This document shows positions 2,746-38,308 of a DNA stretch of 64,000 nt, piece by piece. The position numbers were made by a program, and so were the translations under genes. The notes under the pieces are model-generated. The model was not told the origin of the DNA and made no database searches. It worked only from the letters and a program-made list of their open reading frames with translations. This DNA comes from an uncultured Candidatus Saccharibacteria bacterium (GTDB lineage Bacteria; Patescibacteriota; Minisyncoccia; Phycocordibacterales; PALSA-1337): positions 90,697 to 154,696 of the forward strand of contig CAYOTK010000001.1 of NCBI GenBank assembly GCA_964406895.1. The letters run 5' to 3'. Position 1 is the first letter of the stretch, and every line of letters begins with the position of its first letter.

Positions 2746-3125
2746 ACTTCAGAATGAATACAAAAAACAAACCAAATATTCGGCCATAGCGCTTAACCTG
2801 TTTGGTTATCGTTAGAGCCGCCAAGAAGCGGTTTTGTTTTATTCAGAAAGAAAGCAATTTGAAAACCACATACCGAGAAATAAAATGTAGGTAGTTCATG
2901 TACCATATTTGCCTTGGTCGGCCGATATGAGAATGCATGAACACAAGTAAGTAAGCGGTGTACAGATTTCCTAATGGGAAATCAAGGGCGTATGGTGGAT
3001 GCCTTGGCTAGAAAAAGCGATGAAGGACGTGGCGTGGCGACGATACGCTTCGGGGAGGTGCCGAGCAACCTTTGATCCGAAGATGTCCGAATGGGGAAAC
3101 CCGATTATGTAAAACATAATTACTG

Positions 3126-3263
3126 TGTCTCGTTAGTGTTTATTATAAGCGCAAAGCTCAAAGCTCAAAGGGCAAAACTCAAAAGTAAAGGCAAAAGCTA
3201 AAAACTTTTAACCTTAAGCTTTGAATTTGAACCTTTAACCTTTTAATAAATAGTAACGAGACA
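3126..3263 (+). other. IVS-like expansion in the 23S gene at the helix-9 position. A hairpin (stem tgtctcgttag / ctaacgagaca) encloses low-complexity gcaaagctcaaag repeats.
   Basis: About 100 extra nt relative to E. coli between GGGAAACCC and GGGAACUGAAACAUC. Flanked by an 11-bp inverted repeat. Confidence 0.6.
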
Positions 3264-3591
3264 CGGAGCGTACGTTGGGAAGTAAAACATTTCAGTACCA
3301 ACAGGAATAAAAACAAAAATGCATTCCGTTAGTAGCGGCGAGCGAAAGCGGAGGAGACTAAACTTAACGTCGCAAGACGTTGAGGGTTGCAAGGCAGAGA
3401 CGTGCTATTTATAGCAGAGAAGTTACAAAATCTTTTGTTAGCAGAATGAGCTGGAAAGCTCGACCCTAGAGGGTGATAGTCCCGTAAGTTAAAACAAAAG
3501 ATCTTCTTGGTTTCTGTTCTTAAGTACCCCAGGACACGAATAGCTTGGGGGAATCTGCCGGAACTAACCGGCAAGTCTAAATATTTTTCTA

Positions 3592-3631
<40 letters not shown>

Positions 3632-4437
3632 CAGCCCGGAAGGGCGGTGAAATAGATCTGAAACCATATGCCTACAAGGAGTCAGCGCCGTTGCACCTCA
3701 TTGCATTTGCTATAGTGAAATAATCAATAACCAAGATCCAATAATCAAACTCTTATCGAGTTTTGTTTGTTGATTATTGGTGTTTGATTATTTCATGGTA
3801 TCGAATGTAACGAGGTGTAACGGTCATGGCGTGCCTATTGAAGAATGAGCCAACGAGTTTTAGCAAGCAGCTCGGCTAAGTCCGCGAGGACGGAGTCACA
3901 GGGAAACCGAGTCTGAATAGGGCGTTTGTTGTTTGCTAAAGACCCGAAGCCAGATGAGCTTGCCACGCGCAGGGTGAAGTTCGCCGAAAGGCGGATGGAG
4001 GCCCGAACCGGTTAGCCGTGCAAAACTATCGGATGACGTGTGGTAAGGAGTGATAAGCTAATCGAATCTGGTAATAGCTGGTTCTCTCCGAAAAAACTTT
4101 TGGGTTTGCGTCAGAATTACCTTCGTGGGGTAGAGCACTGGAAGGTCTCGACAGGTCGAAAGATCACGAGACCTATCAAACTCCGAATACACGAAGTAAC
4201 TATCTGGCAGTTAGACTGTGGGGGCTAAGCTCCATTGGTCAAAAGGGAAACAGCCCGGATCTCAATTTAAGGTCCCTAAATCGACGTTCAGTGCGCTTAA
4301 GGTAGTGAAAATTCTACGACAATGAGGATGTAGGCTTAGAAGCAGCCATCATTCGAAGATAGCGTAACAGCTCACTCATCGAGAAATTTCGCGCCGCAGA
4401 TAATCGGGGCTAAAATGTCGTACCGAAACTGAGGACT

Positions 4438-4683
4438 TGTAAACTACATTGAGGAAAATTTTGTTCTTTAGGTACCAGAGTAGTTCAATGGCAGAACAGC
4501 TGATTTGGTTGCGCATTGCGACCGTTTTAAGTCAGTATGTTGAAGGTTCGATTCCTTCCTCTGGTGCCAAGTAGATTTCGGTGCTCGGGTAGCACATCTC
4601 GCCAATAAAGCGAGACGGGTTAAAACCCCGCCGGGCATCAATTTCGGGGGGAACTTCGGTTCCCCTCCTCAATGTAGTTTACA
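4438..4683 (+). other. IVS in the 23S gene at the helix-45 position (E. coli ~1170). A perfect 17-bp flanking stem (tgtaaactacattgagg / cctcaatgtagtttaca) encloses a tRNA-like module.
   Basis: 23S homology stops at 4437 and resumes at 4684. The insertion is bounded by a perfect inverted repeat, as in RNase III-processed IVSs. Confidence 0.7.
4474..4569 (+). ncRNA. tRNA-like element inside the helix-45 IVS. Features: 7-bp acceptor stem (ACCAGAG/CTCTGGT), D-arm (GTTC AATGGCA GAAC), canonical T-arm (GAAGG TTCGATT CCTTC), discriminator G and an encoded CCA. The anticodon region is expanded by ~21 nt (loop-like TTTGGTT, i.e. a UGG-like anticodon, then a 21-nt insert).
   Basis: Folded by hand from the sequence. 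The GGTTCGATTCC T-loop and a 3' CCA adjacent to a complementary acceptor strand are both present. Confidence 0.5.
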
Positions 4684-5231
4684 AGTGGTAGGAGAGTATT
4701 TGCATCGCGATGAAGGTGAAGGGGTGACCCACACTGGAGCGTTGCGAAGTAAGAATGTTGGCACAAGTAACCGCAATGCGGGTGAGATACCCGCACGCCG
4801 AAAGATCAAGGTTTCCTTGGCAATGTATATCAGCCAAGGGTTAGTCGGTCCTAAGGGGATGGCGAATGCCGCACCCGATGGATACACGGTTAATATTCCG
4901 TGACTTTCATAAAAATCGATGGAGTGACGAAGTGTAGTATATTGTGCGCATAATTGGATTTGACGTTCATGTCGTAAGGATGAGTCTTGGTAAATCCGGA
5001 CTCTGCTTTTGATAGCATATCCAAGCGAAGTGAAAATTTCGAGCAATCGGGAAATACAATAAAGCACACTTCCAAGAAAAGCTTCTAAGATTATTTTTAT
5101 GAAAACCGTACCGCAAACCGACACAGGTGGTTAGGTCGAGTAGACCTAGGCGAACGAGTGAGAGGTCTCCAAGGAACTCGGCAAAAAAGCAGCCGTAACT
5201 TCGGAATAAGGCTTGCCCTCTGGATATTGGT

Positions 5232-5295
5232 CGTTAGTTTTTGGTTTTTGGTAATCGCATTTGTGATTACTAATAACTAATTACTAATTACTAAT
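5232..5295 (+). repeat. AT-rich hairpin mini-repeat (ttagtaatta family), copy A, in the 23S helix-63 variable region.
   Basis: The sequence cgttagtttttggtttttggtaatcgcatttgtgattactaataactaattactaattactaata is about 57/65 identical to the reverse complement of 6931-7015. Confidence 0.6.
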
Positions 5296-5489
5296 ACCCA
5301 GAGGGCCGCAGCTAAAGTATCTCTGGCAACTGTTTAACAAAAACACAGCTCCCTGCGAACTCGTAAGAGGAAGTATAGGGGGTGACACTTGACCAATGCG
5401 AGAAGGTCAAATAACGGCGGTGCGATTATATCAAGCTGACTGTTATAAGCCCTCGTGAATGTCGGTCGTAACTATAACGATCCTAAGGT

Positions 5490-6263
5490 TCTTGGTTTAT
5501 TCACAAGAATGAATCAAGAAGGACTGGGATCGTTATGAGATTAATTGTTAAATATAGAAAACGTATAAGGAATTAATAATGCTGCCTATCTGCGCAGAAT
5601 AAAATGCAGATGTCCTAATAAATATCTGACTATATGCTGGGAAGTCTGAGTATCTCAGGTCACTATGGTATAATTACACCATAGTAACAATACCATGAGT
5701 GCAGACAATCAGCAGGAAAGATTAAAAATTGAAAATTGGATTCTTGGTTTCACTGATGGTGAAGGATGCTTTTCGGTTAGTTTTATAAGAAATAAAACGA
5801 CGAAAACCGGATGGCAAATTTTTCCAGAGTTTGTGATTACGAAAGGAGCCAAAAGTCTGTCTGCTCTCAAAATTATCAAAAAATATTTTGGGTGTGGAAA
5901 ATTATTCGTAAACAGACGTCATGATAATCATAGGGAAAATCTATATCGTTATTGTGTTAGATCTGTTACTGAATTGGAGAAAGTTATCGTCCCATTCTTT
6001 CTAAGAAATGAACTGAAGACATTTAAAATGAATGATTTTCGATTGTTTTCGAAAATCATACTGATTATGTCTGCTGGCGATCATTTGAATATAGTGGGAA
6101 TGAATAAAATCGCCAAATTAGTAGAAAAAATGAACAGACGAAAAAAATCTCGATTTTTGAAATCCTCAGAAACCAAACGTCAGACCCTGAGCGAAGCGCG
6201 TAGCGCTGAGTCGAAGGGAAAATAGAGTTCGCGCTGCATAGCGATATGCAGATTAACAAAACG
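5490..6263 (+). mobile_element. Intron-like insertion (presumed group I) in the 23S gene at the helix-69 hotspot (E. coli ~1917), carrying a LAGLIDADG endonuclease ORF.
   Basis: 774 nt interrupt CCUAAGGU|AGCGAAAUUCC. Preceded by U and ends in G. Junction placement is ambiguous by 1 nt. The group I core was not confidently identified by eye. Confidence 0.65.
5695..6225 (+). CDS. LAGLIDADG homing endonuclease, single-motif (homodimer type), intron-encoded.
   Basis: 176 aa with motif ILGFTDGEGCFSV near the N-terminus. Lies entirely inside the 23S insertion. Confidence 0.8.
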   Translation: MSADNQQERLKIENWILGFTDGEGCFSVSFIRNKTTKTGWQIFPEFVITKGAKSLSALKIIKKYFGCGKLFVNRRHDNHRENLYRYCVRSVTELEKVIVPFFLRNELKTFKMNDFRLFSKIILIMSAGDHLNIVGMNKIAKLVEKMNRRKKSRFLKSSETKRQTLSEARSAESKGK

Positions 6264-6894
6264 TAGCGCAATTCCTTGCGGGGTAAGTTCCCGCGCGTTG
6301 AAAAGTGTAATGACTGGAGAACTGTCTCGGAGACTTGCTCGGTGAAAATACAATACCGGTGAAGATGCCGGTTACCTGCAGTTAGACGAAAAGACCCTAG
6401 AAGCTTTACTGTAATTTGGTATTGACTATACGTTTTTGATGCGTAGCGTAGACGGTAGGATTTGAAGTGTCCCTTTCGGGGGGCATGGATCCGACGATGA
6501 AACACCGTTCTTTAAGAATGTATATTCTAACCTCGGCGGTATAAACGCCGGGAGACAGTATCTGATGGACAGTTTTAGTGGGGCGCTATCCTCCTAAACA
6601 GTAACGGAGGAGCCTATTAAGTTCAGCTAGGCGCGAATGGAAACCGTGCCGATAGTGTATGGGCACAAGCTGGATTGACTGCGAGACGTACGTGTCGAGC
6701 AGATGCGAAAGCAGAGCCAAGTGATCCGACCTTACGCATTAGATGCGGGGGAAGCTCATCGGACAAAAGCTACTCTAGGGATAACAGGCTAGTTCCGCCT
6801 AAGCGTTCATAGCGACGGCGGAGTTCGGCACCTCGATGTCGGCTCACCACATCCCGGGGGTGGAGAAGCTCCCAAGGGTTTGGCTGTTCGCCAA

Positions 6895-6929
<35 letters not shown>

Positions 6930-6930
6930 A

Positions 6931-7015
6931 TTTAGTTATTAGTGATTAGTAGTTAGTTATTGGTGATCGCAAATATGATTACCTAAAACCAAGAACTAAT
7001 AACCAATAACCAAGT
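6931..7015 (+). repeat. AT-rich hairpin mini-repeat, copy B, inverted relative to copy A, at the 5' edge of the second intron. A partial third copy lies at 7099-7145.
   Basis: Reverse complement about 57/65 identical to 5232-5295. The ttagtaattagt motif recurs at 7099-7145. Confidence 0.55.
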
Positions 7016-7137
7016 AGGGCAGTCTGAATCACTTCGAGAGATAATTTTAGTAGTCTATGAAAAAGTATAGGAAATGAACAATCATATCATGGCGGTCGTT
7101 TTAGTAATTAGTCATTAGTAATTAGTGATTAGTTCTA

Positions 7138-7560
7138 ATGCGAACAAGTCGATTTATATCGGTGGAAATCCCGAAAAGGAAGATACCGAGGGAATTATGT
7201 TCACTTAAATGGAAAAGAAGGAAGCGTATGATAATAAAATGGAAGTTGCTAATAAGCGTGTGTGTAGATGATGATTTTGAAAATTGCTTCAAGGATCTGG
7301 AAGCAGATGATGCAGATCAGGCTTTGGAATTAGCGTTCAAAGAAGTTCAGAAAGTTAACAATAGTCTTAGTGATAACGCAGACATCAACAGTGCTCTTTT
7401 ACTCGGGTTTCCTCAAGATGGAGCTTGGAGAAAGAGGCATGGTGACTTCGTTTTCATTGGACGCTGCAGAGCTCTTCAATCCAAAGAAGCAATCAAACAT
7501 TCATCGGTCAGTGAGTTCTGGAGGCCATACGGTACAGCGGACGGCACCATCGAAGACTGA
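7138..7560 (+). CDS. Intron-internal ORF of unknown type (140 aa). No LAGLIDADG, GIY-YIG, HNH or His-Cys motif seen. Possibly degenerate or novel.
   Basis: Longest ORF inside the second 23S insertion. Acidic/low-complexity middle (DDDFENCFKDLEADDADQALE). Confidence 0.3.
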   Translation: MRTSRFISVEIPKRKIPRELCSLKWKRRKRMIIKWKLLISVCVDDDFENCFKDLEADDADQALELAFKEVQKVNNSLSDNADINSALLLGFPQDGAWRKRHGDFVFIGRCRALQSKEAIKHSSVSEFWRPYGTADGTIED

Positions 7561-8052
7561 CCTCAAGGGAATGGTCTCCATTCCCTCCATTTAAGTGAAC
7601 ATAAGCCCGTAGAGACTAAACATCGACCCCCACTTCGCTCCTTTGGAGCTACGCGGGGAAGCTATAGTCCATTGCATCCTGTAAAGGATGATAACAAGCG
7701 TGAGACAGGTTGGTCTCCTATCTACTGCAGGCGTTGATACTTGAGGGGATTTGATAATAGTACGAGAGGACCTTATTGAACAGACCTCTGGTCTACCTGC
7801 TGTCGTGCCAACGGCACCGCAGGGCAGCTATGTCTGGACCGGATAACCGCTGAAAGCATATAAGCGGGAAGCCGACCCCAAGATTATGTATCGTTGAGAC
7901 CCCTGAGAGATGATCAGGTTGATAGGCGTTAGGTGTACGCACCGTAAGGTGTTGAGCCGTGACGTACTAATCCGTCGATCCTGTTAGGAACTTTGTACAG
8001 CATTATTTACGCACTTTATTTCTCGGTTATGGTTTTGAAAGTTGAATATTTT

Positions 8053-8165
8053 GTTCTGGTGGTTCGGCGCTATGGCAACACCCGTTCTCATTCCGAACAC
8101 GGCAGTGAAACGTAGTTGCGGCGATGATAGTCCTTCGGGGCGAAAGTAGCTTGCCGCCAGAACAA
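8053..8165 (+). rRNA. rrf: 5S rRNA.
   Basis: ttctggtggttcggcgctatggc...ccgaacacggcagtgaaacg...gccgccagaac matches the bacterial 5S consensus. Flanked by a processing stem (gttgaatattttgttctgg / ccagaacaaaatattcaac). Confidence 0.9.
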
Positions 8166-8185
8166 AATATTCAACAAACTAAATA

Positions 8186-8214
8186 AGACACCCGAACGGG
8201 TGTTTTATTTTTTG
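8186..8214 (+). terminator. Rho-independent terminator of the rRNA operon.
   Basis: acacccgaacgggtgt hairpin followed by tttattttttg. Confidence 0.75.
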
Positions 8215-17370: not shown

Positions 17371-17472
17371 GTGCGTTGTTACATTATTGAATATTTGCTG
17401 TGCAAACCTGAAATCAATTTCAAATTTCGTGCTTGCACTGCGAAGCTCCGAACGAAGTGAGGAGCGAAGCAG

Positions 17473-17545
17473 TGCGCGATACAGGATTCGAACCTGTGAC
17501 CCTTCCCACGTCAAGGGAATGCTCTACCAACTGAGCTAACCGCGC
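17473..17545 (-). tRNA. tRNA-Val (anticodon GAC).
   Basis: Cloverleaf: GCGCGGT acceptor, D-arm TAGCTCAGTTGGTAGAGC, anticodon stem TTCCC/GGGAA with loop TTGACGT, T-loop GGTTCGAATCC. No CCA encoded. Confidence 0.85.
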
Positions 17546-18706: not shown

Positions 18707-18768
18707 ATCTGATTTTATTTTAATGCTGCGTACTTTAGACAAGGTTTAAATAGGGTACATATCATCAG

Positions 18769-18855
18769 CGGAGAGGGAGGGATTCGAACCCTCGAGACCC
18801 TTGCGAGCCTGCCGCTTTTCGAGAGCGGTGCCTTCGACCACTCAGCCACCTCTCC
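18769..18855 (-). tRNA. tRNA-Ser (anticodon CGA), class II with a long variable arm.
   Basis: GGAGAGG acceptor, anticodon loop CTCGAAA, long variable arm, T-loop GGTTCGAATCC. Confidence 0.8.
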
Positions 18856-18930: not shown

Positions 18931-19002
18931 TAGTTGAATAGGCCCTATCGTCTAGTGGTTAGGACAGCAGGTTTTCAATCTGTTAACCCGGGTTCGACTC
19001 CC
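18931..19002 (+). tRNA. tRNA-Glu (anticodon UUC).
   Basis: GGCCCTA acceptor, D-arm CGTCTAGTGGTTAGGAC, anticodon loop TTTTCAA, T-arm CCGGGTTCGACTCCCGG. Confidence 0.8.
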
Positions 19003-19043
19003 GGTAGGGTCACATCGGATAATAAAAATAGATCCTAAATAGT

Positions 19044-31087: not shown

Positions 31088-31178
31088 GTTATTGAGTACA
31101 CAATATAGCGCAATATTGATTTTTTTGCAAAGGCAGTGAGCTCTATATTTAGAATGCGTGTGACAAGTACGATTTCTG

Positions 31179-31249
31179 CGGGCGATGAGGGAATCGAACC
31201 CCCGACAGCGGTTTTGGAGACCGCAGTTATACCACTTAACTAATCGCCC
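31179..31249 (-). tRNA. tRNA-Trp (anticodon CCA).
   Basis: GGGCGAT acceptor, anticodon stem GCGGT/ACCGC with loop CTCCAAA, T-loop GGTTCGATTCC. Confidence 0.8.
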
Positions 31250-32827: not shown

Positions 32828-32830
32828 TTG

Positions 32831-32914
32831 TGCCGGAGGTGGGACTCGAACCCACAAGAGGTTACCCCCACACGATTTTGAGTCGTGCGCGTAGACCAAT
32901 TCCGCCACTCCGGC
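32831..32914 (-). tRNA. tRNA-Leu (anticodon CAA), class II.
   Basis: GCCGGAG acceptor, 3-bp D-stem, anticodon loop CTCAAAA, 15-nt variable arm, T-arm GTGGGTTCGAGTCCCAC. Confidence 0.8.
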
Positions 32915-37625: not shown

Positions 37626-37669
37626 GGCACGATTATAACAATATGAAAGACTTATTGCCAACTTTTTTG

Positions 37670-37741
37670 TGCCCTCAGCAGGAATTGAACCTACATCTAC
37701 TCCTTAGGACGGAGCTGTTCTATCCGTTGAACTATGAGGGC
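37670..37741 (-). tRNA. tRNA-Arg (anticodon CCU).
   Basis: GCCCTCA acceptor, anticodon loop GTCCTAA, T-arm GTAGGTTCAATTCCTGC. Confidence 0.75.
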
Positions 37742-38232: not shown

Positions 38233-38308
38233 GCCAAGGTAGCTCAGTTGGTAGAGCATTCCCCTGAAGAGGGAAGGGTCACCAGTTCGATCCTGGTCCT
38301 TGGCACCA
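38233..38308 (+). tRNA. tRNA-Phe (anticodon GAA) with encoded CCA.
   Basis: GCCAAGG acceptor, D-arm TAGCTCAGTTGGTAGAGC, anticodon loop CTGAAGA, T-arm ACCAGTTCGATCCTGGT, followed by ACCA. Confidence 0.9.

Follow-up and report, generated by a model that had tools for sequence, protein, structure and literature searches.

What is a tRNA-shaped fold doing inside a 23S rRNA gene? The question is raised by contig CAYOTK010000001.1 of an uncultured Candidatus Saccharibacteria bacterium, from which a stretch of 64 kb (the window) was analyzed. Coordinates of the insert and its module are given on the window and on the rRNA strand (+). An earlier note on this DNA had described, at helix 45 of the 23S gene, an intervening sequence (IVS) with an RNase III-type stem and an embedded tRNA-like module that does not decode, and this structural reading is supported by alignment, by the stem, and by the scores of covariance models. 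The note did not mention a boxA-like motif or what may be a second module, of degenerate form, nor did it place the insert in a widespread family. We lean toward the explanation that the insert is an excised spacer, similar to the internal transcribed spacer (ITS) of rRNA operons, that splits the 23S rRNA at helix 45 and whose tRNA-derived modules act as processing handles of the RNase P type.

The insert, its closing stem, and its tRNA-like module

The host of the insert is the 23S rRNA gene at 2972–7054 (+; Rfam LSU_rRNA_bacteria, 1914 bits). With the Rfam large subunit (LSU) model, the alignment includes the 5′ strand of the helix before GGUAGGGGAGC (helix 45), skips about 240 nt, and restarts at UUUACAAGUGGUAGGAGAG. 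BLAST against a relative without the IVS, locus L014, breaks at 4439 and restarts at 4682. The two agree on the helix-45 site that had been claimed and delimit an IVS of about 242 nt (4440–4681, +) that is missing from IVS-less relatives. An assembly artefact is ruled out because the same arrangement is present in 16 independent assemblies.

The insert is closed by a perfect inverted repeat, with its 5′ arm ACTTGTAAACTACATTGAGGA at 4435–4455 (+) and its 3′ arm TCCTCAATGTAGTTTACAAGT at 4666–4686 (+). The repeat had been described as perfect, which is correct, and as 17 bp long, which understates a real length of 21 bp. The outer ~8 bp of the repeat are the native helix-45 stem. Both marks of an IVS are thereby present, namely extra sequence at the helix-45 tip and terminal inverted repeats that form a long near-perfect duplex (21/21 bp). 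The whole region of 261 nt has a predicted fold of −113 kcal/mol, with a z of −8.5 versus shuffles. Over 24 homologous IVSs the closing stem is 99.4% paired, and 15 of its 21 pairs have changes on both sides, a level of covariation reached by 0 of 500 shuffles; slid controls are 35–43% paired. Judged from its sequence, the stem is a predicted substrate of the RNase III type. A scan for promoters and terminators inside the IVS gave a single match, a weak hairpin of terminator-like form that corresponds to the 19-nt anticodon-loop insert described below.

Within the stem, the stretch at 4474–4569 (+) is recognized by the Rfam tRNA model and by a model of our own (R1) and folds as a tRNA, probably with a body of the Asn type (denoted module 1). 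Direct reading finds each feature that had been claimed for the fold: an acceptor stem ACCAGAG/CUCUGGU (4474–4480/4559–4565), a D arm with G18 and G19 (4483–4497), a T arm GAAGG-UUCGAUU-CCUUC (4542–4558), discriminator G73 (4566), and an encoded CCA (4567–4569). The anticodon stem is GCUGA/UCAGU (4499–4503/4532–4536). The tertiary nucleotides are kept as well: U8 (t4481), A14 (a4487), G18 and G19 (g4490 and g4491), A21 (a4493), G53, U54, U55, and C56 (g4546, t4547, t4548, and c4549), A58 (a4551), and C61 (c4554). In the minimum free energy (MFE) fold of 4471–4569, a leader GGU (4471–4473, +) can pair with G73-C74-C75 (4566–4568) to give a 10-bp acceptor stem, and the same leader precedes the homologous module of a relative, L049.

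A covariance-model search, which the earlier note had named as a check on the fold, gave a strong match. The Rfam tRNA family (RF00005) matches 4474–4566 with 58.5 bits versus a gathering cut-off of 29, at E-values of 4.6e-10 in the whole window and 4.3e-12 locally. R1 was built from 42 tRNAs lying outside any IVS as a guard against circularity; it scores module 1 at 61.2 bits and the seven ordinary tRNAs of the window at 38.8–74.8. In isolation, the 99-nt stretch 4471–4569 folds as a cloverleaf with an MFE of −41 kcal/mol (z −5.4; 0/200 shuffles as good). ARAGORN with default settings does not call module 1, and with the intron option it calls a tRNA “Lys” with a 19-nt “intron”. The 5′ half of the module has zero matches in viral contigs.

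The part of module 1 that departs from a tRNA is the anticodon loop. A decoding loop has 7 nt with U33 and a purine at position 37; the loop of module 1 has 28 nt (4504–4531, +) and reads as U, UUG, a 19-nt insertion, UUAA, and G. The insertion, GTTGCGCATTGCGACCGTT, occupies 4508–4526 (+), predicted folds place a 6-bp hairpin GGUUGC/GCGACC at 4507–4523 (+), and the RF00005 alignment has 25 nt inserted in the loop. Because the loop has 28 nt, module 1 cannot decode as written, which bears out the earlier expectation for an expanded anticodon arm.

Several routes back to a decoding tRNA were tried and rejected. A group I intron does not fit an insert of 19–21 nt, which is too short, and no Rfam intron matches at E ≤ 1. 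For an archaeal-type intron, a 3-4-3 bulge-helix-bulge would be expected; the predicted fold instead has a single bulge and a hairpin loop, each of 5 nt. A suppressor or other decoder produced by a 21-nt deletion would have, in the seven possible registers, UUA, UGA, or UGG loops, none of which fits the Asn-type body. Removal of 4508–4526, the only deletion that restores GUU, yields the loop letters UUGUUAA of an Asn (GUU) sequence and leaves a 6-bp stem or a 9-nt loop in place of a working tRNA. By direct reading, no single deletion gives a canonical 5-bp stem and 7-nt loop with a sensible anticodon.

The likely ancestry of the module comes from its acceptor and T arm. A scan of metagenome contigs with the T arm and the 3′ acceptor strand of the module found 16 loci, all of them outside 23S genes. 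Almost every one is an ordinary tRNA-Asn(GUU) gene with loop CUGUUAA, U1:A72, G73, and CCA, and one is a tRNA-Gln(UUG). Without 4508–4526, module 1 is 77% identical to tRNA-Asn genes, above any other type, the compared genes having been fetched with the module’s own sequence. Module 1 therefore reads as a tRNA-Asn-type gene with a disrupted anticodon loop, a label held with some reserve because one match of the scan was Gln(UUG). A Trp identity, hinted at by A1:U72, G73, and the D arm, was rejected since the scan gave almost only tRNA-Asn(GUU). ARAGORN and Rfam find no other tRNA-Asn in the 64-kb window.

Three observations on the metagenome contigs touch on this ancestry. One tRNA-Asn (L120, contig Ga0265297_10341295) has an apparent group I intron at 35/36, as judged by reading its sequence. 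A tRNA-Gln(UUG) (L121) has an acceptor and T arm identical to those of a tRNA-Asn. Contigs L122–L135 hold phage-like tRNA clusters, and their tRNA-Asn has the acceptor and T arm of the IVS module.

The 5′ arm of the closing stem is closely followed by a single-stranded motif, GTTCTTTA (4463–4470, +), in the context TTGTTCTTTAG at 4461–4471. Family conservation and the fold make it a candidate NusB/NusE antiterminator site. The motif has the boxA core G(C/U)UCUUU(A), predicted to be unpaired and within an rRNA transcript. It agrees at 8/11 positions with 5′-GTTCTTTAAAA-3′, a boxA that is experimentally active (PMC7862264), and with (T/C)G(T/C)TCTTT, which lies 34–88 nt upstream of the 16S gene in 4/4 of the 16S leaders in the fetched loci. 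GTTCTTT occurs in 18 IVSs of the family, at a fixed offset of 33–39 nt in 10 of them. It is predicted to be unpaired in every case, and in six longer IVSs a hairpin lies 4–8 nt upstream. We describe GTTCTTT as a boxA-like motif and putative antiterminator; no boxA was found in the window’s own 23S leader.

At the other end of the insert, a terminal hairpin GGGGAAC-UUCG-GUUCCCC (4648–4665, +) is predicted to adjoin the 3′ arm, and nearly all family members have a hairpin at that position. Between module 1 and the hairpin, 4583–4637 (+) is tentatively a second, degenerate tRNA-like module that lacks a D arm and CCA. Its parts are an acceptor-like GCUCGGG/CCGGGC, an arm CUCGC-CAAUAAA-GCGAG, and a T-like GGG-UUAAAAC-CCC. 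With filters off, R1 gives it 6.3 bits (E 0.07 within 261 nt); the predicted fold is a three-way junction (z −3.5), and the stretch is missing from the relative L036.

The insert family in relatives

Relatives were found by scanning GTDB species genomes with one 23S signature just upstream of helix 45, which gave at least 119 loci. All family counts are among the matches listed for this one signature, the frequencies are rough, and comparisons within the family rest on a handful of sequences. The 119 listed loci are mostly from the Candidate Phyla Radiation (CPR), in Paceibacteria/Parcubacteria-type lineages, with some from Omnitrophota. Helix 45 is plain (≤45 nt) in 77 of the 119 and carries a longer insert in 34; about 25 of the inserts share the architecture seen in the window.

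With R1, tRNA-like modules are found in the helix-45 insert of at least 16 loci, including L036. The modules number at least 21, score 20–71 bits, often occur two per insert, and lie on the rRNA strand in 16/16 loci. The earlier note had made its reading depend on such a comparison with relatives, and the reading has come through it. A strict scan, which required a 7-bp acceptor, a 5-bp T stem, a 7-nt loop, any nucleotide at 73, and CCA, found 16 modules versus 0.16 in shuffles. In the other 85 loci (601 kb), the R1 matches fall into two groups, tRNA-Ile/Ala in the ITS of non-CPR genomes and four tRNAs from the CPR whose position seems to be outside 23S. No tRNA match at helix 45 is listed among these 85, position relative to the 23S gene having been checked by coordinates only for L014. 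The IVSs of the family range in length from 150 to 750 nt and vary widely in the number and type of their modules, and those of L063, L084, L093, and L060 have no detectable module.

The closest relative among the matches listed is L036, with 23S flanks 86–91% identical to those of the window. Its stem is identical, its module is homologous and of the Asn type, and the motif upstream of the module and the terminal hairpin are as in the window. It lacks both the 19-nt insertion and the stretch 4577–4642. Three protein look-ups (flanking or internal) sought the IVS in further contigs of the same species, and every contig that they gave breaks off at the rRNA.

Other inserts were noted at the helix-45 site. 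In L055, also of the CPR, it is a 448-nt classical IVS that encodes PF05635 23S_rRNA_IVP (6e-28). A further type of 138–156 nt (L019, L043, L086, L112, and L114) is built from short AT-rich repeats, both direct and inverted, and has no tRNA-like modules. The inserts of L006, L008, L010, L050, L054, and L106 have large structured modules of 100–420 nt after GTTCTTT, often starting with GAGGTGTC and finishing with GGGTCCAAATCC...CCGACCA, which resembles an acceptor/T-arm end with CCA; Rfam, run on the large modules of L008 and L050, found nothing beyond tRNA and LSU. In L024, L054, L082, L102, and L106, the last module is followed by a CTTTTT run and then by a conserved hairpin, NNNN-TTTTT-CAGGT-AAAAA-NNNN. 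The outer pairs of this hairpin covary (GGCA/TGCC, GCGA/TCGC, and CGG/CCG), and it is missing from the window. In L008, a weak Rfam match resembling 5.8S (31 bits, E 2.8e-5, below threshold) covers positions 826–982, some 300 nt upstream of where the 23S match begins. It may represent a 5′ portion of 23S that was duplicated or became detached.

What the spacer may do

The order of elements in the spacer is the 21-bp stem, the boxA-like motif, module 1, the possible second module, the terminal hairpin, and the stem again. In the favored explanation, the spacer would be co-transcribed with the 23S rRNA and the 21-bp duplex would be cut by RNase III. RNase P would recognize the acceptor, T arm, and elbow of module 1 and cut at 4473/4474, and the leftover ends would be trimmed by the exonucleases RNase J and PNPase. 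The products would be two 23S pieces joined by the base of helix 45 and a CCA-ended tRNA-like RNA of ~96 nt. Excision and fragmentation, the enzymes at work, antitermination by the motif, and a role for the released RNA are what we infer. For bacterial RNase Z, a CCA that is part of the gene acts as an anti-determinant. Module 1 encodes CCA, and the recruitment of this enzyme that the earlier note had proposed is therefore doubtful, a cut by it directly after G73 being unlikely. CPR genomes have generally retained RNase III, RNase J, and PNPase, whereas many other RNases have been lost (PMC12641178).

Besides the anatomy and the tRNA-model scores, what is observed is conservation and covariation across relatives together with the loss of decodable loops. 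A canonical loop (7 nt, U33, purine 37) is present in 6 of the 21 modules: Trp CCA (L089), Pro UGG (L002, with A73 and the C1:G72 pair of Pro identity), CUC (L008), UUU (L024), AUU (L036), and UCU in a weak second module (L021). The other 15 loops are non-canonical through insertions of 26–79 nt, 6-nt loops, a GCGA tetraloop, or C33/C37. Each of four Asn-type modules has its own lesion. The loop is CUAUUAA (G34A) in L036 and AUUUAA (a 1-nt deletion) in L032, while the window and L049 have different insertions of ~19 nt, with a loop of 26 nt in L049.

The stems around these loops are kept in spite of sequence change. The Asn-type acceptors, ACCAGAG/CUCUGGU in the window and UCCGGAG/CUCCGGA or UCCGGGG/UCCCGGA elsewhere, are paired by compensatory changes. 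The anticodon stems have wholly different sequences and are all paired, and one T stem is UAAGG/CCUUA. Between the window and L036, two acceptor pairs and all five anticodon-stem pairs differ with pairing retained, and conservation is higher in the T arm than in the 23S flanks (86–91%). Compensatory pairing is seen too in a Gly-type pair (L021 and L049) and an initiator-like pair (L024 and L054). Some modules are cut down to an acceptor, a T arm, and CCA around a single hairpin, and one of these (L032a) keeps perfect 7-bp and 5-bp stems. CCA is encoded in ~16/21 IVS modules versus 3/11 ordinary tRNAs of the CPR loci (Fisher p 0.02); among the window’s ordinary tRNAs it is encoded in 1/7 (Phe).

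The 3′ RCCA of substrates is bound by bacterial RNase P RNA. The pattern of change points to maintenance of the tRNA shape and not of decoding, that is, of the part that would be read by processing enzymes and not by the ribosome.

The same comparisons bear on the strongest competitor, a serious reading to which we give clearly less credence. It holds that an ordinary spacer, excised by RNase III, carries a captured tRNA pseudogene that has no role and is incompletely decayed or refreshed by gene conversion. Decay of this kind would suit anticodon loops broken in many ways, second modules that are far more degenerate (6.3 bits in the window and 24.4 bits in L021), and the variation in module number, module type, and IVS length (150–750 nt), and classical helix-45 IVSs are removed by RNase III alone. 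It is harder to reconcile with lesions that cluster in the anticodon loop instead of being spread evenly, or with pairing that survives, between the window and L036, two differing pairs in the acceptor and five in the anticodon stem. The T arm that these two share is better conserved than their 23S flanks, the modules keep CCA at a higher rate than do the ordinary tRNA genes of these genomes, and even the reduced module L032a has intact stems; all three speak against decay.

Several points weigh against the processing-handle explanation. RNase III alone suffices for the removal of helix-45 IVSs in other bacteria, and for that reason the tRNA-like module is not obviously needed. Pairing of the GGU leader with G73-C74-C75 could hinder RNase P instead of helping it. 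The compensatory changes could have arisen in functional tRNA genes of the host before independent capture or gene conversion, and the canonical-loop modules such as Pro UGG of L002 and Trp CCA of L089 may be real tRNA genes. As to the boxA-like motif, the 16S leaders that carry it are all from non-CPR genomes, and G[TC]TCTTT is present in 0/72 of the leaders (400 nt) upstream of 23S genes.

A bolder version of the processing-handle explanation, which we consider rather unlikely, extends it to a whole Paceibacteria-type CPR lineage. Helix 45 would there be a true ITS with a boxA antiterminator and a CCA-ended cassette, the 23S rRNA would be in two pieces, and the tRNA mimics would have functions of their own as decoys, regulators, or enzyme substrates.

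A function of the released RNA is also the core of a further alternative, in which the cassette exists to release a stable CCA-ended tRNA mimic, one per ribosome (a decoy, a regulator, or an enzyme substrate), and processing is the means. The module keeps its whole L-shape, with G18 and G19 in the D arm, the T loop, and the anticodon helix, which is beyond the acceptor/T minihelix that RNase P needs. The encoded CCA, the dedicated boxA-like element with conserved accessory hairpins, and the wide spread across Paceibacteria-type lineages would fit such a role. The identity of the modules varies (Asn-, Gly-, and initiator-like, Pro, and Trp), with one or two per IVS, which argues against one trans-acting RNA, and four IVSs of the family (L063, L084, L093, and L060) have no detectable module. 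On this evidence the alternative is doubtful.

That module 1 is a nested functional gene, the genome’s own tRNA-Asn or another decoder whose 19-nt insert is removed or tolerated, is very improbable. Its appeal lies in the perfect Asn (GUU) loop sequence UUGUUAA obtained by deleting 4508–4526, in the lack of another tRNA-Asn in the 64-kb window, and in the fully canonical-looking IVS modules of relatives (L002 Pro UGG and L089 Trp CCA). Interrupted tRNA-Asn genes are also frequent in Patescibacteria (PMC13011429). With 19 nt, however, the insert falls far short of a group I intron; it matches no Rfam family and forms no bulge-helix-bulge, and its deletion leaves a 6-bp stem or a 9-nt loop. We know of no bacterial system that would remove such a 19-nt insert. 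The homologous modules are non-canonical too, with AUU in L036, a 6-nt loop in L032, and a 26-nt loop in L049, and a normal tRNA-Asn may lie in the genome beyond the window.

An unexcised, tRNA-shaped expansion segment that decorates the ribosome surface at the solvent-exposed tip of helix 45, in a 23S gene with three other long hairpin insertions that are possible expansions, is likewise very improbable, given a perfect 21-bp stem of the RNase III type, an encoded CCA and a leader/trailer pairing that are sensible only if the end is freed, the presence in L055 of an IVS of the classical excised type at this site, and a length and content that vary (150–750 nt).

The surrounding genes and comparison with known systems

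The 23S gene forms a unit with the 5S gene at 8055–8162, which was found by a covariance-model match in the window. The promoter scan places a strong promoter-like site, TTGACA-16-TATACT, ahead of the 23S gene at 2711–2738, and the terminator scan places a terminator-like hairpin 3′ of the 5S gene at 8181–8210. The unit has its own promoter-like site and no 16S gene upstream, which indicates unlinked rRNA genes. The 1-kb spacer between 23S and 5S (7055–8054) contains an open reading frame (ORF) of 140 aa at 7138–7560 (+) with no Pfam match. The ordinary tRNA genes of the window are at 17472–17545, 18768–18855, 18941–19013, 31178–31249, 32830–32914, 37669–37741, and 38233–38308.

The 23S gene carries other insertions. 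One of 773 nt at 5490–6262, near Rfam model position 1956, contains an ORF at 5695–6225 (+) for a LAGLIDADG homing endonuclease (Pfam 1.7e-20), and Rfam finds no group I intron in this insertion at E ≤ 0.1. Three more, identified versus L014 at 3125–3264, 3688–3823, and 5215–5306, are long AT-rich imperfect hairpins with arms of 45–62 nt that are 76–78% complementary. They have no tRNA-like content and could be IVSs or expansion segments.

If the processing-handle explanation is true, many CPR ribosomes would have a 23S rRNA split at helix 45, and cells would hold abundant tRNA-like small RNAs, one for one with ribosomes. The spacer would then play in bacteria, from within an rRNA gene, the part that tRNA punctuation plays in mitochondria and tRNA-like processing signals play in eukaryotes, and it would be conserved throughout a large and poorly understood radiation. 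It would also suggest that antitermination signals can be embedded inside rRNA genes. For annotation, tRNA finders call or miscall tRNAs inside 23S genes, such as the ARAGORN “Lys” with an intron. Such calls distort the tRNA counts used for the quality of metagenome-assembled genomes and can hide or mimic a “missing” tRNA-Asn.

The helix-45 IVS is already classical, and a spacer that bears tRNA modules is apparently undescribed. No description of a tRNA-like module in a 23S IVS was met in the literature searched, in agreement with the earlier note, which knew of none for CPR 23S genes. A 2024 catalogue of CPR rRNA insertions records, at sites known for IVSs, numerous short insertions that are not introns and regards them as probable RNase III IVSs, with no mention of a tRNA (PMC11270868). 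Short insertions left uncharacterized there are now given an anatomy. A 2026 study found that tRNA-Asn genes of Patescibacteria are often interrupted by group I introns at 35/36, and it does not report tRNA genes inside 23S (PMC13011429). The phylum, the tRNA type, and the interruption of the anticodon loop are the same as here. Those introns are self-splicing, of normal group I size, and in free-standing genes, whereas the present insertion has 19 nt and no ribozyme and lies in a 23S IVS.

The classical helix-45 IVSs of Salmonella, Yersinia, Campylobacter, Leptospira, and Coxiella share with the present family the site, the long inverted repeat with an RNase III-type stem, and a patchy presence. 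They are plain hairpins or contain an S23p/IVP ORF, whereas the spacer described here has tRNA-derived modules with CCA, a boxA-like motif, and accessory hairpins. The 16S-23S ITS of rRNA operons has the same parts, namely an RNase III processing stem, a G(C/U)UCUUU motif, and tRNA-shaped units, and the likeness extends to a motif that is sometimes preceded by a hairpin, in the order boxB-boxA. The 16S-23S ITS, however, lies between genes and holds tRNA-Ile/Ala, which tRNA-processing enzymes set free, with its motif upstream of the stem. Here the spacer is inside the 23S gene, the motif is inside the stem-loop, and the units are Asn-, Gly-, initiator-, Pro-, and Trp-like and mostly non-decoding.

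Two other systems place tRNA folds in longer transcripts. In Tetrahymena mitochondria, the LSU rRNA pieces are separated by a tRNA gene, and the tRNA is a cleavage signal for enzymes of the RNase P type. Mitochondrial tRNA punctuation and split organellar LSU rRNAs thus resemble the present case in having a tRNA between two rRNA pieces. The organellar tRNAs are functional, whereas here the hosts are free-living or episymbiotic bacteria and the modules are mostly non-decoding and set within an RNase III stem. The mascRNA of MALAT1 and MEN-beta and the t-elements of plant mitochondria are embedded non-decoding tRNA mimics; RNase P (and RNase Z) cuts them, and their ends carry CCA. They share with the present modules a non-decoding tRNA-shaped fold in a longer transcript, on the same strand (here in 16/16 loci). 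The mimics of that group are eukaryotic or organellar and set the 3′ ends of mRNAs and long non-coding RNAs, whereas the host transcript here is a bacterial rRNA and the CCA is encoded in the genome.

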